DNA of 64,000 nt from Chloroflexota bacterium (lineage in GTDB: Bacteria; Chloroflexota; UBA11872; VXOZ01): positions 576,001 through 640,000 of the forward strand of contig CAXXVD010000001.1 in the NCBI GenBank assembly GCA_963662335.2. The letters are read 5' to 3'. The notes under the pieces are model-generated. The model did not search any database and had not been told where the DNA came from. It saw only the letters and a program-made list of their open reading frames with translations. Shown piece by piece: positions 7,887-47,329 of this stretch (the stretch's first letter is position 1; each line of letters opens with the position of its first letter). Made by a program: the position numbers and the translations under genes.

Positions 7887-9074
7887 ATGCTCACGAATTC
7901 TCTCACACGCACGTCCAAGCCGCAGCGCGTCGTGGTCGCCATGTCCGGCGGCGTCGACTCGTCCGTGGTGGCCGCCATGCTTGCCGAGCAGGGGCACGAG
8001 GTGATCGGCGTCACGCTCAACGTCTGGCAGAAGGGCATGGTGGATACCCGCCTCCACGCCTGCTGCTCCGCCAGCGCCACCCACGACGCCCGGCGGGTGG
8101 CGGACCGCATCGGCATCCCGCACTACTCGCTGAATTTCCGCGAAATCTTCGCGAAGGAAGTGATGGCGCGGTTCGTGGCGTCGTACGCCGCCGGCCGCAC
8201 GCCGAACCCCTGCGTGGACTGCAACCAGTACGTCAAGTTCGCGGCCTTTCTGGAGCGCGCGCGGGCGCTTGACGCCGACTACCTGGCCACCGGCCACTAC
8301 GCGCGCATCGCGCACGATGCCGATTCCGGGCGCTATCGTCTGCTGCGCGCGCTGGATCCACAGAAGGACCAGTCCTACGTGCTCTACATGCTCGGGCAGC
8401 GCCAACTGGCGGGCACGCTCTTTCCCATGGGCGCGCAAACTAAGACGGAAACCCGCGCGTTGGCGCGGCGCTACGGCCTGCACGTGGCCGACAAGCCGGA
8501 CAGCTACGAGATTTGCTTCGTGACCAGCGACAACTACCGCGAGTTCTTGGAGTCGTGGCAGCCCGGCATCGCGGCCGCCGGCCCCATCTGCTACAAGGAC
8601 GGGCGGGTGCTGGGGGAGCACGACGGCATTGTGAACTACACCGTCGGCCAGCGCCGGGGGCTGGGCCTCACCTGGCCCCGGCCGCTCTACGTGATTGCGC
8701 TGGACCCCGAGGGGAACCGGGTATTCGTCGGCGAGCAGGAGGACCTCTACGTCCACGCGCTGGAGGCGATTGACGTGCACTGGACGGCGGATGCGCCGCC
8801 CAGCGAGCCGGCGCCCGTGCATGTGCGCACCCGCTACCGCATGGAGGCGGCGGCGGCAACCGTGGCGCCGGGCGCGGACGGTGAAGCGCGCGTGGAGTTC
8901 GCCCAGCCGATCCGCGCGGTGGCCCCGGGCCAGGCGACGGTCTTCTACCAGGGTGACGAGGTGCTCGGCGGGGGGCGCATCGACCGCGCGCTCAGCCCGG
9001 CGCGGGAAGCGCTGGCGGACGCGGTATCGCCGTTTGCTGCGGCGGCGAGAGATCTCGCCCCGGCGTCGGCGTAG
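7887..9074 (+). CDS. mnmA: tRNA 2-thiouridine(34) synthase MnmA
   Basis: VVVAMSGGVDSS PP-loop, GRTPNPCVDCN, ATGHYA, KDQSY, EICF, YTVGQRRGLG, PGQ. Confidence 0.97.
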   Translation: MLTNSLTRTSKPQRVVVAMSGGVDSSVVAAMLAEQGHEVIGVTLNVWQKGMVDTRLHACCSASATHDARRVADRIGIPHYSLNFREIFAKEVMARFVASYAAGRTPNPCVDCNQYVKFAAFLERARALDADYLATGHYARIAHDADSGRYRLLRALDPQKDQSYVLYMLGQRQLAGTLFPMGAQTKTETRALARRYGLHVADKPDSYEICFVTSDNYREFLESWQPGIAAAGPICYKDGRVLGEHDGIVNYTVGQRRGLGLTWPRPLYVIALDPEGNRVFVGEQEDLYVHALEAIDVHWTADAPPSEPAPVHVRTRYRMEAAAATVAPGADGEARVEFAQPIRAVAPGQATVFYQGDEVLGGGRIDRALSPAREALADAVSPFAAAARDLAPASA

Positions 9075-9337
9075 GATTTAGTTGCTCCTCCGGGGGTGGC
9101 TGCACCGTCGGCGTCGACTCGGGTATCGGCGTTTGCATCGGCCCGCGCTCGCTGACGGCTTCGCGGGCGGAGAGTCTTTCGCGTCCCACATTTTGCCCTG
9201 CTCGCACCCGCGCTACGATAGTTCTACTCACCCCCCAGCCTCCCCACTGATGCAGGCCCTGCGGCTGGCTCAGGACACGTTGCAGCCTGCGCCGGGACTG
9301 GTACCTCACGGAGTCTCGCCCGCGTAGCCGCGCTATA

Positions 9338-33397: not shown

Positions 33398-33612
33398 TAC
33401 AGTCTACGCAAGTAGGCCATTGCCCGTTGCCCGCAGCGCCGTCTCCTGAGGGCGAGGCTGAGGGTGAGGGGTCGCTCCGCGTAGCGCGGGGGCTTGTCCC
33501 CCGCCTCTTGCGACGCAACGTACGTCCGGTGTAGGGGCGCGACATGTCGTGCCCTTACACCGGACGCGGCCTACCCACATGCAATCGGACTTTTCACTGG
33601 AGAGAAGAACCC

Positions 33613-34476
33613 ATGAGCGAGCCGGCCATTCGCGTAGACGGCGTCAGCTACGCCTACGGCGACGTGAAGGCCGTGGACAACGTCAGCTTCAGCGTCGCCC
33701 AGGGCGAGGTCTTGGGCTTTCTGGGGCCGAACGGCGCGGGCAAGTCCACCACCATCAAGCTGCTCACCGGCCAGATGCGGCCCCAGAGCGGCGCAATCGC
33801 CATCCTGGGCATGGACGTTGCCAAAGACCGCGACGCCATCCAGGGCCGCATCGGCGTCTGCTTCGAGGAGAAGAACCTCTACCTCAATCTCTCCGCCAAC
33901 GAGAACCTGCGCTTCTTCGCCCGGCTCTTCGGCATCCGCGACTTCGACCCCACGCCGCTCTTGCAGCGGGTCGGTCTGGCCGACCGCGCCGGCGACCGCG
34001 TCAAGGGCTTTTCCAAAGGCATGCAGCAGCGGCTCATGGTGGCGCGCTGCCTCATCAACGCGCCGGACATCCTCTTCCTGGACGAACCCACCGACGGCCT
34101 CGATCCGGTCTCCTCCCAGGCCATTCGCCGGGTCATCGAGGAGGAAGCCGCGCGCGGCGCGGCCATCCTGCTCACCACCCACGACATGGACGAGGCGGAC
34201 AAGCTCTCGGACCGGGTGGCCTTCATCAACGACGGCACGATCGCCGCCCTGGATACGCCGGAGAACCTCAAACTCGCCCACGGCCAGCGCGCGGTGCGGG
34301 TGCGCACCCGCGCGAACGGCGAGGTGCGCGAGCAGGTGGTGCCGCTGGACGCCAGCGATACCGGCGACCAACTGAAAGCCGTGGTAGGCGCGGAAGGCCT
34401 GCTGACCATCCACACGGAAGAAGCGACGTTGGAAGCCGTCTTCATCACGCTGACGGGCCGCGGGCTGCAAGAGTGA
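33613..34476 (+). CDS. ABC-2 type exporter ATP-binding protein
   Basis: GPNGAGKSTT, FSKGMQQR, LFLDEPTDGLD, TTHDM. Confidence 0.93.
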   Translation: MSEPAIRVDGVSYAYGDVKAVDNVSFSVAQGEVLGFLGPNGAGKSTTIKLLTGQMRPQSGAIAILGMDVAKDRDAIQGRIGVCFEEKNLYLNLSANENLRFFARLFGIRDFDPTPLLQRVGLADRAGDRVKGFSKGMQQRLMVARCLINAPDILFLDEPTDGLDPVSSQAIRRVIEEEAARGAAILLTTHDMDEADKLSDRVAFINDGTIAALDTPENLKLAHGQRAVRVRTRANGEVREQVVPLDASDTGDQLKAVVGAEGLLTIHTEEATLEAVFITLTGRGLQE

Positions 34477-34541
34477 TGGGCCGCGGCTTGCAGGAATGAC
34501 GGGCCAAAGACCACAAGATTAATTGGTAGAGGAATTCAAGC

Positions 34542-35654
34542 ATGAGCGCCAGCGCCTCGCGCGCCGCCATCCTCTGGGCAATCATCCGCAAGGACTTGCT
34601 GGAATACCGCCGCGAGCGGTTCTTCGTCGTCATCACCGTCATCGGCATCGCGCTCTACGCCACCGCCTTCTGGCTGATGCCGAGCGACGTGGACGAATCG
34701 TTTGCCGTGGGCGTACGCCAGACCGGCATGGACGCCGTCTTTGCCCAGGCCATGGGCGACCAGGCTGCGGGCCTGGAAATCGTGCAGTTCGAGACCATTG
34801 AAGCGCTGGAGGCGGCGCTGGGCGTGGGCGGCGCGGAACCGGAGGAGCCGCTGGCGATTGGCCTGGCCTTCCCCGACGACTTCCTGCAACGGGTAGCCGC
34901 CGGCCAGCAGACCACGGTGCGGGTCTACGTGGACGCCAACGTGCCCGCCGAAATCCGGCGCGCCATGGCGAGTTTCGTGCGCGAGATCGCCTACGCCCTC
35001 TCCGGCAATCCCCTGCCGGTGGCCGAGCCTGACCGGGAAGTAATCGTGCTCGGTGAAGACCGGCTGGGCGCGCAGGTGCCGTTCCGCGAAAAGATGCGGC
35101 CCCTCTTTGCCTTCTTTGCGCTCATCATCGAGACCTTTGCCCTCAGTTCGCTGGTCGCCACCGAGATTCAGGCGCGCACGGTGACTGCCGTGCTGGTCTC
35201 GCCCACGCGGGTCTCCGACTTTCTAGCCGCCAAAGGCATCCTGGGCACGGGGATGGCGTTTGTCCAGGCCGTGCTCCTGCTGCTCATCATCGGCGCGTTC
35301 ACCACCCAGCCGCTCATCTTGCTCTGCGCGCTCCTGCTGGGCGCGGTGCTGGTGACCGGCTGCGGCCTGATCGCCGGCGCGGCGGGCAAGGACTTCATCG
35401 AGACGCTCTTCTACGGCATGGCCTTCATGGTGCCGCTGATGATTCCGGCAATCGCCGCGCTCTTTCCCGGCACCGCCGCGGCCTGGGTGAAAGTCCTGCC
35501 GTCCTACGGTCTGGTGCAGGCGGTGGTGCAGGCCAGCGCCTACAACGCCGGCTGGGCGGACGTGCTGCCGTACCTCGCCATGTTGCTGGCGTGGTGCGTG
35601 GTAGCCTTCGCGGCGGGATTGATAATCTTGAAGAGAAAGGTGGAGACGCTGTGA
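34542..35654 (+). CDS. ABC-2 type exporter permease
   Basis: IIRKDL N-terminus, extracellular loop, E..ARTVTAVLVSP motif, multiple TM helices; follows the ATPase gene. Confidence 0.88.
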   Translation: MSASASRAAILWAIIRKDLLEYRRERFFVVITVIGIALYATAFWLMPSDVDESFAVGVRQTGMDAVFAQAMGDQAAGLEIVQFETIEALEAALGVGGAEPEEPLAIGLAFPDDFLQRVAAGQQTTVRVYVDANVPAEIRRAMASFVREIAYALSGNPLPVAEPDREVIVLGEDRLGAQVPFREKMRPLFAFFALIIETFALSSLVATEIQARTVTAVLVSPTRVSDFLAAKGILGTGMAFVQAVLLLLIIGAFTTQPLILLCALLLGAVLVTGCGLIAGAAGKDFIETLFYGMAFMVPLMIPAIAALFPGTAAAWVKVLPSYGLVQAVVQASAYNAGWADVLPYLAMLLAWCVVAFAAGLIILKRKVETL

Positions 35655-36718
35655 GCGGAATGAACACGTTGCACCTATTGCGCAAGGACCTGGGCGTCGG
35701 TCCGCGCTCGCCGATCTTCCTCTACGCCATCGCGCTGCCGGTGATTCTCACGCTGCTCATTCGCGTGGTGTTTGGCAGCCTCTTCGATCCCGCGCCCCGG
35801 CTGGGCATCGTGGATGAAGGCGACTCTCAGATTGTCGAGAACGCCCGCAATGTCGAGGGGGTCGAGATTAGATTTCCGGAATCCGCCGCCGCCTTGATGC
35901 AGATGGTGGAGAAAAACGACCTGGACGCGGGCCTGGTGCTGCCCATCGGCTTCGACGCGGCGTTGCGGGCGGGCCAGATGCCCAACGCGCAGTTCTTCTT
36001 CGGCGGCCAGAGCCTGGCCTCGAACCGCGTCGTGTTGGGCGTGACCATGGTTGACCTCATCCGCGAGGCGGCGGGGGCGCCGGCGCCCATCGACGTGGAA
36101 ACCGTCACCGTAGGCGATGGCGACGCGGCGCCGCTGGTAGCGCGGCTGTTGCCCTTGATCGTCCTCATGGCGGTGCTCATCGCCGGCGCGCTCACCCCGG
36201 CCACAAGCCTGGTGGAAGAAAAAGAGAAGCGCACGCTCACCGCGCTGCTGGTCACGCCGGCCCGGCTGGGTGACGTGCTGCTCGCCAAGGGCGCGTTGGG
36301 CTTCATCCTGGCCATGGCCACCGGCACGGTCACCCTGGCGCTGAACGGCGCGCTGGGCGCGAATACTGCCGCGCTGCTGTTGGTGCTGGTACTGGCGACC
36401 CTCATGGCGGCCGAGGTCGGCCTGATGCTCGGCTCGTTCGCCAAAGACACCAAAGCGCTCTACACCATCTGGAAGTCCGGCGCCATCGTCCTGCTCGCGC
36501 CCGTGATCTTCTTCATCTGGCCCAACCTGCCCCAGTGGATAGGAAAAATCTTCCCCACCTACTACTTCCTCTCTCCCCTCTTCGAGATCGCCATCCGCGG
36601 CGCCGGCCTGGCTGACGTGTGGCCGGAACTCGCCATCGGCTTCGGCATCTGCGCGGCGTTCCTGCTGGGCGTCTACGCCCTGGGGCGGCGCATGGAGTCA
36701 ACCCTGGCCGCGACATAA
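35651..36718 (+). CDS. ABC-2 type exporter permease (second subunit)
   Basis: LLRKDL, EEKEKRTLTALLVTP, FPTYY; GTGA overlap with the previous gene. Confidence 0.88.
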   Translation: MSGMNTLHLLRKDLGVGPRSPIFLYAIALPVILTLLIRVVFGSLFDPAPRLGIVDEGDSQIVENARNVEGVEIRFPESAAALMQMVEKNDLDAGLVLPIGFDAALRAGQMPNAQFFFGGQSLASNRVVLGVTMVDLIREAAGAPAPIDVETVTVGDGDAAPLVARLLPLIVLMAVLIAGALTPATSLVEEKEKRTLTALLVTPARLGDVLLAKGALGFILAMATGTVTLALNGALGANTAALLLVLVLATLMAAEVGLMLGSFAKDTKALYTIWKSGAIVLLAPVIFFIWPNLPQWIGKIFPTYYFLSPLFEIAIRGAGLADVWPELAIGFGICAAFLLGVYALGRRMESTLAAT

Positions 36719-36721
36719 GGA

Positions 36722-36781
36722 CGCCTGGATGATGAAGGCAGTCTCGTGTCCGCCCATCGGCCGCAGGCCAAATTGCGTTGA
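36722..36781 (+). pseudogene. Orphan 3'-terminal remnant of a beta-propeller paralog
   Basis: Translates as RLDDEGSLVSAHRPQAKLR*, matching the paralog C-termini RLDDKGNLMPANPQ and RIDDEGNLVPANSP. Followed by TGAACCCTA, as after copy 4. Confidence 0.7.
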
Positions 36782-36821
36782 ACCCTAAACGGAATCTGTA
36801 TGTTACTGGGGATTCTCTAAT

Positions 36822-36870
36822 CTGTTGGCCTCATCCGTTTGACATCATGGCAATATATGCGCTCTATCAG
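36822..36870 (+). repeat. Conserved upstream motif of the propeller array, copy 1
   Basis: CTGTTGGCCTCATCCGTTTGACATCATGGCAATATATGCGCTCTATCAG. Confidence 0.8.
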
Positions 36871-36904
36871 GTATATCACCCGTGAGTTAGCAAGGAGTGT
36901 CATC

Positions 36905-38227
36905 ATGCGGCGAGATTGGTCGACGCTGCGAAGGTTTCTCCTGCTGTTCACATTCCTGATCACTAGTGCTTGCAGTGGCAGCACATCTACTAGCGAGCCA
37001 GCCTACCCATGCGGGCCATTCTTCATTGGCGAGAGGGCATACAAACAATTCCCTCTCGAATGGACGCCCGACGGCAATCTTCTTATCTTTCGCGCAGGCA
37101 CAACCATTGGAGTAGTTGATGCCATAGGTACAAACCTGCGGACGCTTGCTGATGCGAATCCGGGAAACGAACTGATGTATGGCATTCATGTGGATATCTC
37201 ACCAGACGGTAGGCAGGTTGTTTACTCCAGTTGCGAATTCCCGACGGGAGGCGGGACAATACGACCCGCAAGGAAAGACTTCAACTATGAATTAGTCTTA
37301 GTCAACCTGGAAGGCACGGAAAAACAGCGTTTGACACTGAACACACATCTCGACCTCTACCCGGCGTGGTCACCCAATGGCAGCCGCATTGCCTTTGTTG
37401 CGAACCCGCGCAGCAGGCACGCGGAACTCTATGTTATGGCGGCAGATGGGTCAGATGTGCGGCAGGTAGCAACCACGCTCATAGAATCGGTTACCGAGAG
37501 ATACGGCAAGAGACTAGCGACAAACGCCCTACATACGCACTGGAAGAGAGGAGAGGGAGAAGATCTCAGCGATGACGAAGACGCGTGGTTGGGTGCCGTA
37601 GCCCTTGCGCCGCCGTTGTGGTCGCCCGACGGAAAGCGCTTGGCGTTCTTGGTCGAGGAAGGGGAGTATGGGCCGTATCAGAAGATCCTGTACTCGGTGC
37701 GCGCAGATGGAACAGACTTGAAGCGTGTGGCGGCGACGGAAGCTTTGCCAGCCTGGTCACCGGATGGGCAAAGGATAGCTCTGGTAACGTATGCCGGCGA
37801 TGATTTGGCGCTCTACACAATACTGGCAGACGGTTCTGACCCAAAGCTGATAACCACCGTAACAGAGAAGGAGACCTTCGAGCATCGGAACTCCCGATAC
37901 TTCAGCGCGGATTTTACTCTGTCGTGGTCGCCGGACGGCGCCCAGATACTCTATACCTGTGACTTTGGCGCGTGTGTAGTGAACGTAGGGAATAGCGAAG
38001 TTACTGTCTTGGTGGAGGGAACGACAAAGTGGGACGAAGAGACGTACATTGCAGCGTGGTCACCAGACGGTGCCCGCATTGCTCTGTACGTTCCCGGCAA
38101 TGACTACTACAACATACCGACCCAACTCTACACGATAGCCCGCGACGGCACCGACCGCCGCGACCTGATAGCCCTGGACACCAGCGGCAACCTGGCTCCG
38201 GCCAACCCACCGAAGGAGGCACCGTGA
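36905..38227 (+). CDS. TolB-like PD40/WD40-like beta-propeller lipoprotein, copy 1 (type A)
   Basis: ITSAC lipobox, YPCGP, about 8 W(S/T)PDG repeats, YTCDFGAC; AAGGAG RBS. Confidence 0.85.
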   Translation: MRRDWSTLRRFLLLFTFLITSACSGSTSTSEPAYPCGPFFIGERAYKQFPLEWTPDGNLLIFRAGTTIGVVDAIGTNLRTLADANPGNELMYGIHVDISPDGRQVVYSSCEFPTGGGTIRPARKDFNYELVLVNLEGTEKQRLTLNTHLDLYPAWSPNGSRIAFVANPRSRHAELYVMAADGSDVRQVATTLIESVTERYGKRLATNALHTHWKRGEGEDLSDDEDAWLGAVALAPPLWSPDGKRLAFLVEEGEYGPYQKILYSVRADGTDLKRVAATEALPAWSPDGQRIALVTYAGDDLALYTILADGSDPKLITTVTEKETFEHRNSRYFSADFTLSWSPDGAQILYTCDFGACVVNVGNSEVTVLVEGTTKWDEETYIAAWSPDGARIALYVPGNDYYNIPTQLYTIARDGTDRRDLIALDTSGNLAPANPPKEAP

Positions 38228-38274
38228 TGAACAGTGATCGGAAAATCCCTTATTTGCCAAGTTCCTTTCAAGAA

Positions 38275-38328
38275 CCTGACTGTTCACCACACCCGTTTGA
38301 CATCCTGGCTATATATGCGCTCTATCAG
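38275..38328 (+). repeat. Conserved upstream motif, copy 2
   Basis: CCTGACTGTTCACCACACCCGTTTGACATCCTGGC core, identical in copies 2, 3 and 4. Confidence 0.9.
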
Positions 38329-38356
38329 ACAATTCCGTAAGCAAAGGACTGTGAGC

Positions 38357-39625
38357 ATGCGACGATTCTGTTTGGCCGCATTGGGGCTGGCACTGGCCTT
38401 AAGTGTTGTCAGTTGCGGCCCACGGCAAACCGATGTATACGATGGAGACGCTTACCCATGTGGCCCGTTAGGGTTGGATGGCCCCTACCTCAATTTGGAA
38501 AGACATGTCCTTAACTGGACCCCGGACGGCTCTCAGCTCATTTTCCCCCACGATACAACCATTTGGATCGTTGACACCGCCGGAGTTCGGTTGAATGCGC
38601 TGGTTGACGTGAACCCGGACAACGAGCTTGGCTACGGCTTCCACGCCGATATTTCGCCGGACGGCACGCGCATGGTATATGCCACCTGCGAGTTCCACTC
38701 AAGCGACACCTTGTTTGTGCAACGAGATGACTACAATTACGAGATCGCCGTTATCAACCTCAATGGCACTGGTCGCCAGCGACTCACGACGAACCGAATA
38801 CTTGACTACTTTCCCGTTTGGTCGCCCGTCGGCAACCGTATCGCCTACATATCGAACCCTAGAGGAGCCAGCGACCACACCAACGAACTCTTCGCGATGG
38901 CAACGGACGGGTCGGACGTCCGGGACGTATTATCAAGTGCCACGCCTGCGAAAGTTAGCGATAGAAGACTGTATGGCAAGGTCGTGCTAGCGCCACCGAT
39001 GTGGTCGCCGCCAGACGGTAGCTACTTAGCATTTCTGGTGAATGAAGGAAGCAATATACCGTATCGGCACATTCTCTACACGGTGCACCTTGGTGCGATG
39101 GAGTTGACCCGGGTCGCAGAGGTGGCGGGTCTGCCGGAAGGCAGCCTTGTGCCAATCTTGCCGTCCTGGTCGCCGGATGGCGAACATCTTGCTTTCGTAA
39201 TGGCCGATGAGGAGGGTACGCCTGCCGGCGTCTACACTATCCGTCCAGATGCAACAGACCTGCGGCAGGTGCTGGAACCGCAAGCACCAGGTTGGAGAGT
39301 ATTCCACGTGGCTTGGGCGCCGGATGGTGCCGAGATTCTCGTCGTCACTGATCAGGGGTTGCATTTCATTCAGCCGGACGGTAGCGGTCTGCGCATGGTG
39401 GACCAGAGTACCGCGTTTCATGACTCCGTTGATAGCCTAGGGATTGCTGTGGCATGGTCACCTGACGGCACACGTATTGCGTTGTACTTACCAGGCGCTG
39501 CCTACAAGAACATACCGACCCAACTCTACACAATAGCCCGCGACGGCACCGACCGCCGCGATCTGATAACCCTGGACGCCGACGGCAACCTGGCTCCGGC
39601 CAACCCGCCGCAGGAGGCGCCGTGA
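38357..39625 (+). CDS. TolB-like beta-propeller lipoprotein, copy 2 (type B)
   Basis: VVSC lipobox, YPCGP, WSPDG repeats, QVLEPQ..W..FIQPDGSGLR. Confidence 0.85.
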   Translation: MRRFCLAALGLALALSVVSCGPRQTDVYDGDAYPCGPLGLDGPYLNLERHVLNWTPDGSQLIFPHDTTIWIVDTAGVRLNALVDVNPDNELGYGFHADISPDGTRMVYATCEFHSSDTLFVQRDDYNYEIAVINLNGTGRQRLTTNRILDYFPVWSPVGNRIAYISNPRGASDHTNELFAMATDGSDVRDVLSSATPAKVSDRRLYGKVVLAPPMWSPPDGSYLAFLVNEGSNIPYRHILYTVHLGAMELTRVAEVAGLPEGSLVPILPSWSPDGEHLAFVMADEEGTPAGVYTIRPDATDLRQVLEPQAPGWRVFHVAWAPDGAEILVVTDQGLHFIQPDGSGLRMVDQSTAFHDSVDSLGIAVAWSPDGTRIALYLPGAAYKNIPTQLYTIARDGTDRRDLITLDADGNLAPANPPQEAP

Positions 39626-39671
39626 TGAACAATGATCAGATTGCCCCTCATTACCAAGTTCCTTTCAAGAA

Positions 39672-39725
39672 CCTGACTGTTCACCACACCCGTTTGACAT
39701 CCTGGCGATTTATGCGCTTTGTGAG
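39672..39725 (+). repeat. Conserved upstream motif, copy 3
   Basis: Identical 35-bp core. Confidence 0.9.
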
Positions 39726-39754
39726 ACAAAGTGACACTTGAGGACTCTATTGCT

Positions 39755-41119
39755 ATGGATTGGATCAAGCAGTTACCTATGTTCGTACTTGCCGCTGTAG
39801 TGTGTCTTGGCATGACTGCGTGTGCGCAAGAAAAGGGCGAAGGATCTGGCATGGATACACAGCCGACTTCCACGCCTTCAGTGCTGTCCACTCCGCTCAC
39901 CCCGCTGCCGACGCCAAGGGAAAAGGGGGACGAAACTTTGGTATTGCCCTGCGGGCCGACACCTCAGGAAGCAGGCGGTCATGATTTCTATGGCTTCGGC
40001 GATGTCTTTCTAGAGTTCACGCCAGATGGCTCCCAGCTAATGTTTTCTTACAGCACTTCCATTTGGATCGTTGATGTTGCGGGTACCCAATTGCGTATGC
40101 TGGTGAATGCCAATCCCCGAGGCAGCTTTGAATACGGCTTCCATGCCGACATTTCGCCTGACGGTACGCAGGTCGTCTTTTCGACCTGCGATTACCCTTG
40201 GGACGCTCAGAGTTTTGCCGCTAGGCATGGCAATGCATTGCTCTCACTGCCCGTATACTCACCTGACAAGTATGATATTGCCTTGATTGACATTGACGGT
40301 GACGCGCCACGGCGACTCACTAAGAGTCGATACTTGGACCACTTTCCGGCATGGTCGCCCGACGGAAGTCGCATCGCTTACATCCACTTCCTTGATAGTA
40401 CCCGCATGGGAATACCCCCCAGAACCATCCGAACGATGACGGCAAACGGCTCCGAGTGGCAGGAGGTTCAGAAGACTCGCAGTTTGGCAATTGCTGCCGC
40501 ACGGCTGGCGTGGTCGCCGGATGGGAAGAAGCTAGCATTCCTCGTACATGACTGGGAGAACTGGCCGCGTCAATATACCCTCTACACCGCCCTCGCCAAT
40601 GGCTCCGAATTGCGGAAAGTGGCTGAGAACGTTGTAAGCGACGCGGCATGGTCGCCGAATGGACAGCTTATTGCACTAGCAAGGCTCGTCGGCGAGGAAG
40701 TAGGGCTCTACACTCTGGCCGCTGACGGCTCCGACCAGAAGCTGATTGCTGCCATTAACGACATAGAGGGGTACCTGGACTGGTCTGTTGAATTCACATC
40801 TTTGTTGGTGAACTCGGAGGCGTGGTCGCCGGATGGCACTATGCTTCTCTATTCTTGTCTTGAAGGCGCATGCGTAATTGATGTCGAGAGTGGACAGAGC
40901 ATCGGGCTGGTATCCGACAGTGCAGTGAGGTATCGCCAACCTTTCATTGCAGCTTGGTCTCCGGACGGCTCGCGAATCGCGATCTATACGCCCGGGCACA
41001 CTTTTGACGGCGTACCGGCCCGGCTTTTCACAGTAGCCCGTGACGGAAACGACCACAGCGATCTGATACGTATAGATGACGAGGGCAATTTGGTGCCAGC
41101 GAACTCGCCAAGAGAATGA
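39755..41119 (+). CDS. TolB-like beta-propeller lipoprotein, copy 3 (type A)
   Basis: MTAC lipobox, Pro/Thr linker, LPCGP, WSPDG repeats, YSCLEGAC. Confidence 0.85.
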   Translation: MDWIKQLPMFVLAAVVCLGMTACAQEKGEGSGMDTQPTSTPSVLSTPLTPLPTPREKGDETLVLPCGPTPQEAGGHDFYGFGDVFLEFTPDGSQLMFSYSTSIWIVDVAGTQLRMLVNANPRGSFEYGFHADISPDGTQVVFSTCDYPWDAQSFAARHGNALLSLPVYSPDKYDIALIDIDGDAPRRLTKSRYLDHFPAWSPDGSRIAYIHFLDSTRMGIPPRTIRTMTANGSEWQEVQKTRSLAIAAARLAWSPDGKKLAFLVHDWENWPRQYTLYTALANGSELRKVAENVVSDAAWSPNGQLIALARLVGEEVGLYTLAADGSDQKLIAAINDIEGYLDWSVEFTSLLVNSEAWSPDGTMLLYSCLEGACVIDVESGQSIGLVSDSAVRYRQPFIAAWSPDGSRIAIYTPGHTFDGVPARLFTVARDGNDHSDLIRIDDEGNLVPANSPRE

Positions 41120-41190
41120 ACCATGTTTAACTATCCCATATTTTCGCCTGACCCTCTGCTAGCCCATGGCAGACGCGAATCCTCGGCGTG

Positions 41191-41244
41191 CCTGACTGTT
41201 CACCACACCCGTTTGACATCCTGGCAATCTACGCTCTGTACCAG
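41191..41244 (+). repeat. Conserved upstream motif, copy 4
   Basis: Identical 35-bp core, although the sequence upstream of it is unrelated to copies 2 and 3. Confidence 0.9.
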
Positions 41245-41266
41245 ACGTTACCGTGAGGAAAGACTG

Positions 41267-42676
41267 TTGTTCCAGCGAATAGTTCGTGTAGGATTGCTTG
41301 TGCTTCTGACACTGGCTGTTGTCGCATGCCAGCAAGACTCGATCAGATCCCAACAAGAGACAACTATCGGTGAGAGGATTCAAGCTAATGCAAGTCCTTC
41401 GCCTATAGCCATCGTCGTACCAACGGCAACACCCTATCCGACTCCAGATACTGCGCCAGACGGTGAGCCAAGTTTTGATTGTGGCCCACTGGGCATGGCT
41501 GGGCCTCACGCAGCTTCAGAAAGACTGACTCTGGCGTGGACGCCGGATAGCACTCAGATCTTATTCAACTACGCGCCTACAGACAGACAGCAATATGATG
41601 GGAAACCGCTCTTCTTAAGTGCCTTTTGGATGGTGGACGCGGCCGGCACGAGGTTGCAGATGCTTGTGGATTCCAATCCCGGCTATTACTCCGCTTACGG
41701 ATATCACGCTGACTTGTCCCCGGATGGTAAGCGGATTGCATACACTACTTGCGAGTTTGCTCACGAAGGATTCCTAGGTTACCGCGGCGAAAACATGGAA
41801 CGAGCACGATTCCTGTACGAGATTGCTGTCATCAACCTAGACGGTACTGGTCAGGAGCGGATCACGGCGAATAGATATCTTGAGCACTATCCAGTCTGGT
41901 CGCCCGATGGTTACCGCATCGCGCTCATTTCAAACTCTGCCGGGCCACACAGAACCCTTCGAAACGGCCGTACTGTACTCTACACAATATCGGCAGACGG
42001 ATCCGATTGGCAACGGGTGTCGGTGCCTGAACAAACCGGCTTGGCACTCGCGCCGCCGGCGTGGTCTCCCGATGGAGTGTACCTAGCGTTCGTGGCAGAT
42101 GGAGGAGAAAACCTATCGAATAGGAGTGTTTTGTATACCGTGAGGGCAGATGGGTCAGAAGGAGGCAGAATTGCAGATATTGCGACCAAGTCAGGTCTAC
42201 TGTGGCACTTGCCAACGCTACCCAGTTGGTCACCGGATGGTAAACACCTTGCATTTGTGAAGGCTGCCGGCAATGGCAGGTCTGGCGGCATCTACTTGGC
42301 ACGACCTGATGGCTCAAACTTGCAACAAGTGCTGCAACCGCAAGAGCCGAACTGGAACATCACTCAAGTCTTGTGGTCGCCAGATGGCTCGGAGATTCTT
42401 GCAGTATCGGATCAGCGGCTTTACTTCTTCCAACCGGACGGTAGCAGTCTGCGGACGGTGGAACTGAGGGTTGAAGAATTCTACGGCCCTAAGCGAATAG
42501 TTGCATGGGCGCCAAACAGTACCCGTATCGCAATCTACACACTGTTAGACAGTAGCAGTAACATACAGCCTCAGCTCTACACAGTAGCCCGGGACGGTAC
42601 CAACCGCCGCGACCTGATAACCCTGGACGCCGACGGCAACCTGGCTCCGGCCAACCCACCGCAGGGGGCACCATGA
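41267..42676 (+). CDS. TolB-like beta-propeller lipoprotein, copy 4 (type B)
   Basis: VVAC lipobox, FDCGP, WSPDG repeats, QVLQPQEPNW..FFQPDGSSLR. The TTG start after GAGGA is tentative. Confidence 0.83.
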   Translation: MFQRIVRVGLLVLLTLAVVACQQDSIRSQQETTIGERIQANASPSPIAIVVPTATPYPTPDTAPDGEPSFDCGPLGMAGPHAASERLTLAWTPDSTQILFNYAPTDRQQYDGKPLFLSAFWMVDAAGTRLQMLVDSNPGYYSAYGYHADLSPDGKRIAYTTCEFAHEGFLGYRGENMERARFLYEIAVINLDGTGQERITANRYLEHYPVWSPDGYRIALISNSAGPHRTLRNGRTVLYTISADGSDWQRVSVPEQTGLALAPPAWSPDGVYLAFVADGGENLSNRSVLYTVRADGSEGGRIADIATKSGLLWHLPTLPSWSPDGKHLAFVKAAGNGRSGGIYLARPDGSNLQQVLQPQEPNWNITQVLWSPDGSEILAVSDQRLYFFQPDGSSLRTVELRVEEFYGPKRIVAWAPNSTRIAIYTLLDSSSNIQPQLYTVARDGTNRRDLITLDADGNLAPANPPQGAP

Positions 42677-42687
42677 TGAACCCTAGC

Positions 42688-42741
42688 CGGATTGTCCACC
42701 GCATGCGCTGGACATCCTGGCGATCTATGCACTCTGCCAAA
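42688..42741 (+). repeat. Conserved upstream motif, copy 5 (diverged)
   Basis: TTGTCCACCGCATGCGCTGGACATCCTGGCGATCTATGCACTCTG aligns with the core. Confidence 0.75.
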
Positions 42742-42768
42742 GCCGCGACTGAGGATTGGAGTGTCAAA

Positions 42769-44220
42769 GTGGGACGTCTGTGGCTGGTTCTGTTGGTGCT
42801 ATTGCTGTGTCTGGCCGCTTGCGCGGAGGACAAAAGCGAGACCAGAAACAAGATCAATGAAGAGCAGGCACGTGAACTTGCGGAGCAGCGTCGTGAGCGC
42901 GACAGGATTGCCTATGAAGAGAAGCTAAAGGAGATTGAGGAACTTCGCAGGAAGCGCGACCAAGAGCTGATAGATAGCAATTTCGGGCATCCTCGCCTGC
43001 CGTGCGGAATGTCTCAGTTGGGCTATCCCCCGGTTGCCTACCACGACAATTTCTTGGTGTGGACGCCGGACGGTACACGTCTCATATTCGATGGAGGACC
43101 AGAGGCAATATGGGAGGTGAATACTGAAGGAACCGCGGTGAGAAGGCTCTTTGACATTAATCCAAATGGGAATCGACCCTACGTAGATGAGACTAAGTTA
43201 CCCTACGGCTTCTTTGCCGACGTTTCACCGAACGGAAAACTAATCGTCAGTGGCATTTGCAGGAATGACACTGGCAGGCCGATCGAACACTATGAGATCG
43301 CCGTATTCGACCTGCGCGATGGCGGGAGGCAGCTTCTCACGGACAATGCCATTCTCGACCGCTACCCGGTGTGGTCGCCGGACGGCAGCCGGATCGCCTA
43401 CGTTAGTTTCGCGAGATATTTTGGCTTACACCACCGACTCTACACAGTGGCAGCGGACGGGTCGGACAGGCGGATCGCGACTTCCGTGCCGGTTACGTTC
43501 TATCCGGCGCAAACTGCGGCTGAAGAGAAAGACGCAGCGGTACCCAAGTTAAGAGGAATTGCGCTGTTTCCGCCAGCGTGGTCACCGGACGGCAAGAAGC
43601 TGGCGTTCCTGGTATACGAAGAATCTGAAGTGAAGTACGATCCGCGTCGGAAGATACTCTACACCGTGCGGGCAGACGGTTCGGAGTTGGCACGGATAGC
43701 CGAGGATGTCGTAAGCGTGGCATCGTGGTCGCCGGACGGGCAACGGCTGGCGGTGGCCAAGTACGCCGGGGAAGCAAGAGAAGGCGTTGCGCTCTTCACG
43801 CTGGCAGCCGACGGTTCCGACGAGAAAGAGATTGCTACCATCACGGACAGCATCAGCGCATTCCGTAGCAGCTATGAGTGGAAAGTCCACACGGTGTCGT
43901 GGTCACCAGATGGGACACAGATCCTCTACTCCTGTGATGAGGGCGCGTGCGTTGTTACTTTGGAGGATGGGCAGGTGACCGGGTTGGTAACAGAACTGGA
44001 GTTGCGTGACAACGCGCCGTACATTGCAGCCTGGTCTCCCGATGGCACGCGCATCGCCGTATACGATCCAATTGGCCCCACAGCTAGCTATCCCGGCTAC
44101 GAGATGCCACCCGCGCTCTATACGGTGGCCCCAGACGGCACTGACCGTCACGATTTGCTACGCTTGGATGATAAGGGCAACCTGATGCCCGCGAACCCGC
44201 AACAATTAGAGGGATCATGA
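42769..44220 (+). CDS. TolB-like beta-propeller lipoprotein with charged coiled-coil stalk, copy 5 (type A)
   Basis: LAAC lipobox, E/R/K-rich helix, LPCGM, WSPDG repeats, YSCDEGAC. Confidence 0.85.
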   Translation: MGRLWLVLLVLLLCLAACAEDKSETRNKINEEQARELAEQRRERDRIAYEEKLKEIEELRRKRDQELIDSNFGHPRLPCGMSQLGYPPVAYHDNFLVWTPDGTRLIFDGGPEAIWEVNTEGTAVRRLFDINPNGNRPYVDETKLPYGFFADVSPNGKLIVSGICRNDTGRPIEHYEIAVFDLRDGGRQLLTDNAILDRYPVWSPDGSRIAYVSFARYFGLHHRLYTVAADGSDRRIATSVPVTFYPAQTAAEEKDAAVPKLRGIALFPPAWSPDGKKLAFLVYEESEVKYDPRRKILYTVRADGSELARIAEDVVSVASWSPDGQRLAVAKYAGEAREGVALFTLAADGSDEKEIATITDSISAFRSSYEWKVHTVSWSPDGTQILYSCDEGACVVTLEDGQVTGLVTELELRDNAPYIAAWSPDGTRIAVYDPIGPTASYPGYEMPPALYTVAPDGTDRHDLLRLDDKGNLMPANPQQLEGS

Positions 44221-44287
44221 TGGAAGTCTACGAGATGTCCCCTGCTCTCGCAGATGTCTTTGGCGGCTGAATGGCATTCTGTGAGCC

Positions 44288-44339
44288 GGTTTGCACACCA
44301 CTCCGTTCGACTTCATGTCGATTTACGGCCTCTGTCCAA
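44288..44339 (+). repeat. Conserved upstream motif, copy 6 (most diverged)
   Basis: TTGCACACCACTCCGTTCGACTTCATGTCGATTTACGGCCTCTG aligns loosely with the core. Confidence 0.55.
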
Positions 44340-44353
44340 TGCGTTATAAGGAA

Positions 44354-45733
44354 ATGGAGAGAAGGTTCGTGGATTTCGGACAAGAACAGACAAAACTGAC
44401 CCTGTTAGTAATTGTAATACTCGTCTTGGGTATGGTCGGCTGTGGGGAAGCAGCAGCACCTCCACATAAGCGAATAGTAAAGGATCATCCCGCATATCCT
44501 TGCGGTCCGTACTGGAACGGAGTTGGTTCCCTTGATGGTTTTCTCCATTGGATACCTGATGGCTCCGGTCTAATATTTGGACAGGAGGGGGAGATTTGGA
44601 CAACGGATAACAGCGGCAGTTCGCTGCGGCGGATTGCTCATTCCAGTTCCGACTACGAGTCTGCCATCGGCTCCTATGCGGATGTGTCGCCAAACGGCGA
44701 CAAGATCGTCTATGCGACGTGCGAGTATCGGACAGAAGAAGCCAGAGAATACGGATCAAATCCCGAGCGAAGCAAATACAACTTCGAGATCGCCGTTGTT
44801 GACTTGGCAAGCGGGGAAAAACAGCGGCTGACAACGAACGTGTACCTTGATCACTACCCGGTTTGGTCACCCGATGGCGCCCACATTGCTTTCATTGCAA
44901 ACCCACGCACTTGGGGCCGCTCCATAGGGGAAAACTCGGAAGTCTATATGATGAGGACGGATGGATCGGACGTGCGGCTGCTAGCTTCCACCTTAAACGA
45001 AGTGAGCACTGGGAGATGGGAAACAAACGCCATCGCAAACAGTCTGAAGAGATCCAAGGGAGAGAAGATTGAGGAATCTGTTGAGCCGTGGCTAGGCGCG
45101 GTAGCCTTGGCGCCGCCGGTGTGGTCCCCAGTCGGTGAGCACGTGGCTTTTCTGGTTGGAGAAGGTCCAGGCCCTAACTTACATGATCGGGCAGTTCTCT
45201 ATACGGTTCGGCCAGATGGATCGGAGTTGACACGGATTGCGGAAGCGATGTTCCCGCCGTCGTGGTCACCAGACGGCAACTTCCTTGTCTTCGTTAGGGC
45301 AGACGAGGAGGGCAAGGCCGCAGGCGTTTACACTGCCCGTCCCGATGGTACCGAACTAGCACAGATCCTGGCGACACAAGAACCTGAGTGGGTAATCACT
45401 CAAGTGCTGTGGTCACCGGATGGGCAGGAAATCCTTGCAGTCTCGGAGCAGCGGCTCGATTTTCTCCAGCCTGATGGCAGTGGTTTGCGAACTATCGACA
45501 TGGCGCTAGATCCAGAATCGCTCGCGGCTGGGCTCAGACCCAGCTTTGGGCTGATTGCCGCATGGTCGCCGGATAGCGCACGCATTGCCTTTTATGTCCC
45601 ACTTCACGAGCGCTATGAAGTGCCATTAACACTCTACACCCTGGCGCGAGACGGAAAAGACAGGCGCGACCTGGTCACTCTGGATGAAGACGGCAACCTG
45701 GCCCCAGCCAAGCCGCCACAGCAGTCCGAGTGA
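44354..45733 (+). CDS. TolB-like beta-propeller lipoprotein, copy 6 (type B)
   Basis: MVGC lipobox, YPCGP, WSPDG repeats, QILATQEPEW..FLQPDGSGLR. Confidence 0.85.
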   Translation: MERRFVDFGQEQTKLTLLVIVILVLGMVGCGEAAAPPHKRIVKDHPAYPCGPYWNGVGSLDGFLHWIPDGSGLIFGQEGEIWTTDNSGSSLRRIAHSSSDYESAIGSYADVSPNGDKIVYATCEYRTEEAREYGSNPERSKYNFEIAVVDLASGEKQRLTTNVYLDHYPVWSPDGAHIAFIANPRTWGRSIGENSEVYMMRTDGSDVRLLASTLNEVSTGRWETNAIANSLKRSKGEKIEESVEPWLGAVALAPPVWSPVGEHVAFLVGEGPGPNLHDRAVLYTVRPDGSELTRIAEAMFPPSWSPDGNFLVFVRADEEGKAAGVYTARPDGTELAQILATQEPEWVITQVLWSPDGQEILAVSEQRLDFLQPDGSGLRTIDMALDPESLAAGLRPSFGLIAAWSPDSARIAFYVPLHERYEVPLTLYTLARDGKDRRDLVTLDEDGNLAPAKPPQQSE

Positions 45734-45814
45734 TGACCTATGCAATAGCACTCGTTGCATTTGTACCGCACGGGTTGTTGGGAGTGTCCCTTCTCCTTTT
45801 TCCCCTACTCCTAC

Positions 45815-47329
<1,515 letters not shown>

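Follow-up and report, generated by a model that had tools for sequence, protein, structure and literature searches.

A conserved motif ahead of six PD40 lipoprotein genes in a Chloroflexota bacterium is very probably the 3' end of an HExxH protease gene

The PD40 gene array and its intergenic motif

The 64,000 nucleotides (nt) analysed here (the window) are positions 576,001 to 640,000 of contig CAXXVD010000001.1 in the assembly of a Chloroflexota bacterium (GCA_963662335.2), and contain an array of six genes for PD40 propeller lipoproteins, each with a copy of one short motif in front of it. A preliminary description took this motif for a non-coding element, namely a promoter or operator for each cassette, a recombination site, or both. 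We present evidence that it is almost certainly a piece of coding sequence, the 3' end of a protease gene comprising its last ~20 codons and the stop codon. In the window the protease bodies are absent and only 3' ends, here called stubs, stand before all six PD40 genes. The array and its conserved flanks (ABC, ATP-binding cassette; ORF, open reading frame) are as follows.

33544..36718, + strand: left flank, conserved; ABC ATPase gene and two ABC-2 permease genes
36778..36885, + strand: stub 1, after the ABC-2 permease gene; 35-codon open frame from TTG, ending in LICWPHPFDIMAIYALYQVYHP and a stop; motif 36817-36885
36905..38227, + strand: PD40 propeller lipoprotein gene 1; 440 aa, lipobox ending in TSAC
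38227..38340, + strand: stub 2; 37-codon ORF, MNSDRKIPYLPSSFQEPDCSPHPFDILAIYALYQTIP and a stop; motif 38275-38340
38357..39625, + strand: PD40 propeller lipoprotein gene 2; 422 aa
39622..39734, + strand: stub 3; junction and linker as in stub 2, without an in-frame start; motif 39672-39734
39755..41119, + strand: PD40 propeller lipoprotein gene 3; 454 aa
41120..41256, + strand: stub 4; sole in-frame start a GTG two codons before PDC; motif 41191-41256
41267..42676, + strand: PD40 propeller lipoprotein gene 4; 469 aa, TTG start after GAGGAAAG
42673..42752, + strand: stub 5; linker deleted, a stop directly before PDCPPHALDILAIYALCQSRD and its own stop, no in-frame start; motif 42687-42752
42769..44220, + strand: PD40 propeller lipoprotein gene 5; 483 aa, GTG start
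44217..44353, + strand: stub 6; most diverged (ending in HTTPFDFMSIYGLCPMRYK), no stop, in frame with gene 6; motif 44285-44350
44354..45733, + strand: PD40 propeller lipoprotein gene 6; 459 aa, last of the array
45815..47329, - strand: right flank, conserved; guaA (GMP synthase)

The repeat itself is as first described. Three exact copies of the 35-mer CCTGACTGTTCACCACACCCGTTTGACATCCTGGC, and no more, are present in the window, on the + strand at 38275, 39672 and 41191, and 100 shuffled sequences gave no match. The diverged copies of stubs 1, 5 and 6 were located by reading and by alignment of the six intergenic regions, so that count and alignment together confirm an identical 35-bp core in three copies and diverged copies before the other three genes. 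Alignment likewise bears out that the motif lies close upstream of each propeller gene (6/6) while the adjoining signal-peptide regions do not align with one another. In copies 1-5, the frame that we describe below as conserved reaches its stop 10-20 nt 5' of the next gene's likely start; copy 6 lacks the stop, and its conserved frame continues in frame into gene 6.

All six downstream genes encode PD40 (PF07676) repeats and lipoprotein-type signal peptides, and their products score far under the TolB and Dpp5 cut-offs in NCBIfam. The longest ORFs of genes 4 and 5 (41123-42676 and 42673-44220) begin at the junction ATG and cross the stub in a non-conserved frame. The true starts are likely TTG 41267 for gene 4 and GTG 42769 for gene 5, each just ahead of the lipoprotein signal peptide. 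We would like to caution annotators that the long ORFs beginning at 41123 and 42673 read through a stub into the gene and do not give the true N-termini.

Coding origin of the motif

A coding origin is indicated by the way in which the copies differ. Their substitutions have a period of three, and can be written in alignment as CCG TTT GAC ATC CTG GCN ATH TAY GCN CTN TRY CAR. When all six frames were translated, a single one was conserved as peptide in 6/6 copies, namely (P)DC(S)PHPFDILAIYAL(Y/C)Q; it reads PDCSPHPFDILAIYALYQ and then a stop, which in 5/6 window copies comes 2-4 codons beyond the motif's Q (or E). Between copies 2 and 4, seven of the eight differing codons are synonymous in this frame, and it is in this frame only that amino-acid replacements are conservative. 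The earlier case for a non-coding role had been argued from a different frame, HTRLTSW, which was said to be in frame with genes 1, 2, 4 and 5 and not with genes 3 or 6. Translation confirms exactly that (the frame runs on into the four genes and not into the two), but HTRLTSW is poorly conserved and was the wrong frame to judge by, the conservation being held by another (HPFDILAIYALYQ).

The whole genome (3.23 Mb, 64.5% guanine plus cytosine, GC) was searched in six-frame translation with a hidden Markov model (HMM) of the six window peptides. It found 11 copies, six of them in the window and five at C1:411-427 kb, the latter each directly upstream of a PD40 gene or of a gene fusing PD40 to leucine-rich repeats (PD40-LRR). 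To the question raised in the preliminary description, whether the motif always precedes this protein family, the genome scan thus answers that 11/11 HMM-found copies lie directly upstream of PD40-family genes. Three of the five distant copies close long frames at the C-terminus. One of these frames encodes a 1662-aa protein with fn3 domains that runs through HEAGHALG and DSVMSY before ending with the motif peptide as PDCSPHPLDIMAIFALYQTR and a stop (C-terminal tail LVHEAGHALGIREGNDGADQLVHHPTIPDSVMSYERLLPVEDPDCSPHPLDIMAIFALYQTR, then the stop); the other two end similarly, following HEAGHALGLSG and HEGGHALGLSG. Since the same peptide closes long frames that carry HEAGHALG or HEGGHALG, we read the motif as the end of an HExxH domain. 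The window stubs begin at the equivalent of that domain's SVM(S/N)Y segment, stub 2 opening with GGTVMNSD.

These results leave a promoter or operator, read by a sigma factor or a transcription factor for each cassette, as a highly improbable explanation. What had made it attractive is that TTGACA is present in window copies 1-4 (and in those only) and that the spacing from the motif down to each PD40 start is short and fixed. However, no sigma-70-like site on the + strand coincides with any of the six copies, and the four sites that the region does contain are all on the minus strand (5.2 expected). The TTGACA is part of the codons TTT GAC ATC and is present in 4/11 genome copies, the other seven having CTAGAC, TTAGAC, TTGGAC, CTGGAC or TTCGAC. 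Variation at third codon positions, conservative replacement at the amino-acid level and the position of the motif inside a long ORF in intact modules also speak against a promoter. A terminator scan, run alongside the sigma-70 scan, returned nothing at the motif.

Two further coding arrangements were considered and rejected. Programmed frameshifting from the upstream gene would need shifts of -1, +1, -1, +1, +1 and -1 over the six copies, and no slippery site was seen by eye. For minus-strand coding, inspection showed copy 2 to contain a stop in the frame with the same wobble positions. Separately, the peptide HMM search picked up as noise a 177-aa frame at G000:C3:245640 (+) with at least 7 tandem 7-residue units (ALCDTKD).

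The HExxH domain

Alignments of 14 and of 54 domain sequences show H183, H187, G190 and H204 to be invariant and E184, C222, P224, D228, A234, Y236 and Q237 to be nearly so. The HExxHxxG pattern of a zinc-binding helix is present, and the structural model described below places a helix at 173-188. The third ligand is not found at the HExxHxxGxxH/D spacing: the domain reads HEAGHALGI(R/G)xG, and the next invariant histidine is H204, ~17 residues past the second one. The segment in the place of the Met-turn has the consensus SVMNY or SVMSY, with V or L for methionine in some members, so that the methionine is not an invariant column.

Comparison to known families points in the direction of the metzincins. 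In a profile search of the PDB, 46/47 sequences retrieved were metzincins (matrix metalloproteinases, myroilysin, serralysins and archaemetzincin), only at E 0.04-2.4. The Pfam family Peptidase_M10 matches 9/54 members (best E 6.5e-5), with bit scores, where shown, of 12.7 and 11.4 under a gathering cut-off of 24; M66 matches 2/54. A phmmer search of the PDB with the tail of the 1662-aa protein yielded nothing relevant, and neither NCBIfam nor PADLOC had a family for the protease or for the stub peptide. An AlphaFold2 (AF2) model with a predicted local distance difference test (pLDDT) score of 70.6 has helices on the HExxH segment and on the motif (an earlier model, made from 14 sequences with pLDDT 46.9, was not used). 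With the better model, Foldseek found nothing at E<=0.001, and the sole VIA-align result was leishmanolysin (Z 3.0, root mean square deviation 4.8, 128 aligned), which is not convincing; both outcomes leave the protease fold unconfirmed and weigh against the explanation of the stubs that we favour below.

Like the metzincins (matrixins, M10A; serralysins, M10B; leishmanolysin, M8), the domain has an HExxHxxG helix, a later invariant histidine and a segment with the methionine-containing consensus SVM(N/S)Y, followed by a final helix, D-I-x-A-I-x-x-L-Y, which resembles the end of matrixin and serralysin catalytic domains. It differs from them in that its third zinc ligand is off the canonical spacing, its M10 scores are under the cut-off and it has no convincing structural match. 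Because of these scores and the lack of a convincing structural neighbour, we call the domain metzincin-like, on its motifs, and not a proven member of the group.

The domain is common. Its profile matches 916 clusters (50% identity) at E<=1e-3 and 628 at E<=1e-10, and in nearly all of the best 150 of the 916 matching clusters the end of the profile coincides with the end of the protein. Signal peptides are visible in 5/12 long frames inspected. The only Pfam domains found are fn3 and Pur_ac_phosph_N in the 1662-aa protein, and fn3 in others; RHS, PAAR, LXG, TPS and VgrG modules are absent from these proteins according to Pfam (PADLOC gave no match and NCBIfam was uninformative).

Linkage of the motif and the protease to PD40 genes

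The PD40 HMM picks out 17 frames of this genome at E<=1e-5, of which five were dropped as partial matches of other architectures. An HMM-detectable motif lies upstream of 11 of the remaining 12, which match most of the profile. The twelfth family member, C1:464408-465694 (-), has a decayed motif, HDCSPSLIHSMPIFAIYQSH and a stop, with HGAGH before it in another frame.

The motif was found in 16 of the genomes of 41 relatives (this genome included), with 11/16 in the genus, 4/7 in one other family and 0/17 in four others. In loci from nine genomes of congeners and relatives, 56/63 PD40-matching frames have a motif at most 700 nt upstream. The seven without one are two frames cut by the edge of the locus, three gene fragments, one gene standing first in its array and one deletion variant, in which a different piece of protease (ending FNKCAHHN) is fused to the PD40 leader. 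A wider set, partly overlapping with these loci, comprised 88 copies from 73 loci of named Chloroflexota/Dehalococcoidia metagenome-assembled genomes (MAGs) and two Acidimicrobiia; here a PD40 gene lies just downstream of 76/88 copies, that is, 42/47 long and 34/41 short ones. The protease and the PD40 lipoprotein are thus almost always a two-gene module with the PD40 gene directly after the protease gene.

The second locus of this genome (G000:C1:406440-429050; L004, L005) holds three protease-type genes, PD40-LRR fusions of 600-631 aa and two LRR-only proteins of 738 and 760 aa. One of its protease genes is split by a frameshift (L005:7310-8872 and 8703-9263).

The short copies

Among the 56 copies in loci of the genus, 21 close frames of at least 140 aa and 35 lie in frames of 20-125 aa. 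The short frames hold a variable share of the domain, some still having HExxH and some the last 20 codons only, and many of them open at I/T-V-M-N, with a GTG ATG that overlaps the TGA of the preceding PD40 gene. Perhaps the stub-forming deletions occurred by way of microhomology at this GTGATGA. In one G004 cassette the cut lies inside the motif, after FDIM, and is joined to the last ~80 codons of a PD40 gene. A GTGATGA is also present at 45731-45745, after the stop of gene 6, together with a few codons like the protease's VMSY segment and without a motif; the same is seen at this position in L028 (G003).

If ribosomes reaching the end of a PD40 gene were to restart at this overlap, the stubs could be live mini-genes or leader ORFs, the overlapping ATG giving either a functional helix peptide of 20-45 aa or translation coupled to the next PD40 gene. 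Stub 2 would suit this well: AAGGAGG stands 7 nt upstream of an ATG that overlaps the TGA of gene 1 (GTGATGA), the 37-codon frame is intact and its stop lies 16 nt before the next ATG. In nearly all copies the stop comes 0-3 codons after the motif, the next gene's Shine-Dalgarno sequence sits right behind the stub stop, as coupling would have it, and the peptide-level pattern is seen among short copies too. Among the junction-type copies found by pattern, 8/17 have no interruption between the start codon at the junction and the motif; stub 2, which the pattern missed, is open as well.

However, three of the six window stubs appear unable to yield the peptide. An in-frame start is missing from stubs 3 and 5, and that of stub 4 is a lone GTG before which no Shine-Dalgarno sequence is seen by eye. 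In all three the junction ATG reads a different frame; stub 3 differs from stub 2 by a 1-nt linker deletion that takes the ATG out of frame with the conserved part, and the ATG of stub 4, at 41123, belongs to a frame continuing into gene 4. An in-frame ATG, GTG or TTG is lacking in 7/35 short copies of the genus (stubs 3 and 5 included) and in 5/41 of the wider 73-locus set, so the in-frame start in nearly all copies that would mark a small protein gene was not found. Moreover, two PD40 genes in arrays have no motif, and the junction ATG is the protease's own Met-turn-like methionine codon. Since some copies are startless or frameshifted, a mini-ORF fails to explain conservation in them, and we regard this explanation as rather unlikely for the stubs as a group.

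Evidence for exchange of cassettes at the array

The six window PD40 proteins are only 34-52% identical, whereas the last ~130 nt of genes 1, 2 and 4 and the stub behind each align nearly unchanged, third codon positions and linker included (the near-identity of these junctions, 2, 3 and 5, was judged by eye on the alignment, with no computed identity). Three cassettes from congeners have PD40 genes 94-97% identical to one another, one behind a full-length protease (G005) and two behind a PD40 gene (G005 and G004). Their upstream DNA does not align except for a short GTGATG at the Met-turn, and near-identity starts at the E-P-D-C codons. A similar step is seen in most of 24 pairs with PD40 proteins at least 70% identical, from ~25% identity upstream to 70-100% in the motif, although the comparison was anchored and linker indels could mimic the step in some pairs. 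For 4/6 window copies the nearest motif is another window copy, while for 5/6 the nearest PD40 protein is in another genome.

The locus also varies in content among congeners. The interval from the permease gene to guaA is 290-442 bp in G001, G002, G004, G007, G009 and G012, 900 bp in G010, ~1.8 kb in G008, ~4.7-4.8 kb in G003, G006 and G011, 6.2 kb in G005 and 9.1 kb here; the shortest gaps have no room for a cassette, and the interval here holds six. Other congeners have 1-4 PD40 genes, or a complete protease gene together with a PD40 gene, between the same genes; thus G003 has a 1050-aa protease and one PD40 gene, G011 has three PD40 genes and G005 has four. The window array is a low-GC island (37000-45800) of 53-57% GC between flanks of 65-68%. 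The second locus, too, has less GC in its protease-domain and PD40 parts than in the N-terminal parts, and the final ~1.5 kb of 11/11 full-length genes is poorer in GC than their N-terminal parts; amino-acid composition may contribute to this.

Of the recombination site proposed earlier, one part stands. In a weaker sense it is supported by the alignments, which suggest that a PD40 cassette, exchanged or duplicated, has the motif as its left edge and that the motif belongs to a homogenised junction block; no site-specific system is indicated. A dedicated recombinase acting on an attC-like or shufflon-like site would suit a motif found at every cassette boundary, a cassette number that differs between congeners and homology breakpoints at the motif's 5' edge. 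Nevertheless, we hold it to be the least probable of the explanations considered. Neither stable or conserved structure nor inverted repeats were found: RNA folding of 99 copies gave a mean z of +0.35 with none below -2, and the consensus fold of 46 was empty. An RNA element is therefore not indicated either. Integrase, invertase and transposase families are absent from the 29 ORFs scanned within ~12 kb, and the conservation is peptide-like.

Motif-to-motif junctions, which the preliminary description had also proposed to look for, were not seen in public contigs of four runs from one study, compared over 35500-46500; these contigs break at the edges of the repeat (for example at 38280, 39558, 39677 and 41196/41220) and so cannot show absence. 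The contig joints listed have sides of 20-45 letters, most under 30, and most long skips converge on the propeller-blade repeat near 43360-43400. A look-up of public RNA runs containing the region listed none.

The contigs carry many single-base differences in the permease gene (36354-36598) and, in 3/4 runs, a 3-nt insertion after 38385, which points to strain variation in the sampled populations. In the left flank, a stretch of ~64 nt at 33500-33563, upstream of the ABC ATPase gene, recurs with 86-89% identity at C1:481006, C1:485994 and C3:205861 and in G011, and looks like a small dispersed repeat.

Origin and maintenance of the stubs

Taken together, we favour, with some reservation, the explanation that the stubs are vestigial ends of protease genes that serve as a homology seam for recombination of PD40 cassettes and have no function of their own. 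In this lineage of Chloroflexota, a gene for a secreted metzincin-like HExxH zinc protease has a PD40 beta-propeller lipoprotein gene ~10-30 nt after it, and the two make up a module. In the window the protease bodies would have been deleted, leaving a 3' stub ahead of each of the six PD40 genes, and most stubs begin at the Met-turn-like codons GTG ATG overlapping the TGA of the preceding PD40 gene. Conservation would then have two sources. One is descent from intact genes under strong protein-level constraint on the C-terminal helix, which we infer from the period-3 pattern. The other would be recombination or conversion among cassettes through the stub and through the 3' end, likewise conserved, of the PD40 gene before it, as suggested by the mosaic junction block, by homology that starts at the PDC codons and by the presence of 0-6 cassettes at one locus among congeners. 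The motif by itself would regulate nothing, and some stubs, such as stub 2 with its Shine-Dalgarno sequence, ATG and intact frame, would perhaps be translated in passing.

In keeping with vestigial copies, deviations at eight near-invariant residues (at least 85% conserved in long copies) number 0.69 per short copy (n=52) and 0.43 per long copy (n=30); the latter falls to ~0.24 without window copy 6, which was counted as long since it is fused in frame. Several observations nevertheless weigh against vestigial stubs, in addition to the structural comparisons above. As many as 26/52 short copies have no deviation at the near-invariant residues and are better kept than simple decay predicts. The third-position excess is about as high in short-short pairs (0.55) as in long-long pairs (0.56-0.67), a comparison that cannot separate inherited from ongoing constraint. 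The features of stub 2 and the roughly half of junction-type copies that are open make translation, and a function of the peptide, possible for some stubs. The first-in-array gene without any stub implies that a stub is dispensable there, which has little bearing elsewhere. Finally, no recombinant junction was recovered from the population contigs, which could not have shown one given their breaks at the repeat.

Relation to known systems

C-terminal displacement and orphan toxin-immunity modules of Rhs/CdiA proteins were reportedly described by Jackson (2009) and Koskiniemi (2014), both as cited in PMC5361080. Together with these orphan modules, the orphan immunity arrays of type VI secretion system (T6SS) clusters in Vibrio cholerae appear to be the closest known system to the one described here. 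According to Kirchberger et al. 2017 (PMC5361080), partner genes in V. cholerae accumulate at one locus and originate in two-gene modules of an enzyme gene and a partner gene; partial effector genes and a short conserved region are found between partner genes, the content varies among close relatives, and the arrays are mosaics formed by homologous recombination. All of these have a likeness here. In contrast to the V. cholerae arrays, there is no T6SS context in this Chloroflexota MAG. The partners are PD40 lipoproteins of ~450 aa with a putative immunity role, the enzyme gene's own 3' end supplies the conserved patch, and the window array consists of six paralogs of one family.

Rhs/CdiA systems resemble the present one in that a small partner gene follows the gene of a large secreted protein whose C-terminal domain is enzymatic, and in that start-less fragments, homologous to the main gene and able to recombine with it, are strung out downstream (PMC5361080; Zhang et al. 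2012, PMC3482391). In those systems the composition of the C-terminal part and the partner also differs from that of the N-terminal part, as does GC in the 11/11 genes noted above. On the other hand, the conserved homology of Rhs and contact-dependent inhibition (CDI) systems is found upstream of a variable toxin tip, whereas in the present case the extreme end of the enzyme domain is conserved, and it is the N-terminal region and the partner that vary. Furthermore, the proteins here have no RHS, PAAR, LXG or TPS domains, only a signal peptide and fn3, and a toxic role is putative. Two hallmarks of an orphan array are nonetheless present, namely a full-length secreted enzyme directly before the partner gene (42/47 long copies, with signal peptides visible) and arrays of partners behind start-less effector fragments that vary among relatives.

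By this analogy, one may speculate, as a tentative and rather doubtful extension, that Dehalococcoidia-type Chloroflexota have, in the secreted protease and the PD40 lipoprotein, a conflict module not described before, either effector-immunity-like or of enzyme and inhibitor. The arrays would be orphan protective partners and the stubs homology handles for swapping pairs while keeping old partners, a polymorphic-toxin logic with its seam at the C-terminus. A literature search for a Chloroflexi system of metzincin, propeller and lipoprotein gave nothing specific among the titles listed.

Significance

The analysis does away with an attractive but misleading idea, that of a promoter or operator for each gene with a perfect -35 box, and gives an example of tracing a short, seemingly non-genic repeat that varies with period 3 back to the end of a truncated gene. 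The module of secreted HExxH protease and PD40 lipoprotein, hitherto uncharacterised, appears to be widespread, as judged from the 916 protein clusters, and its PD40 cassettes accumulate in a hypervariable low-GC island between housekeeping genes. Should protease and lipoprotein prove to be a true antagonist-protector pair, the evolution of effector-immunity arrays would then be known from an uncultured phylum as well, and with an immunity protein of a new kind.

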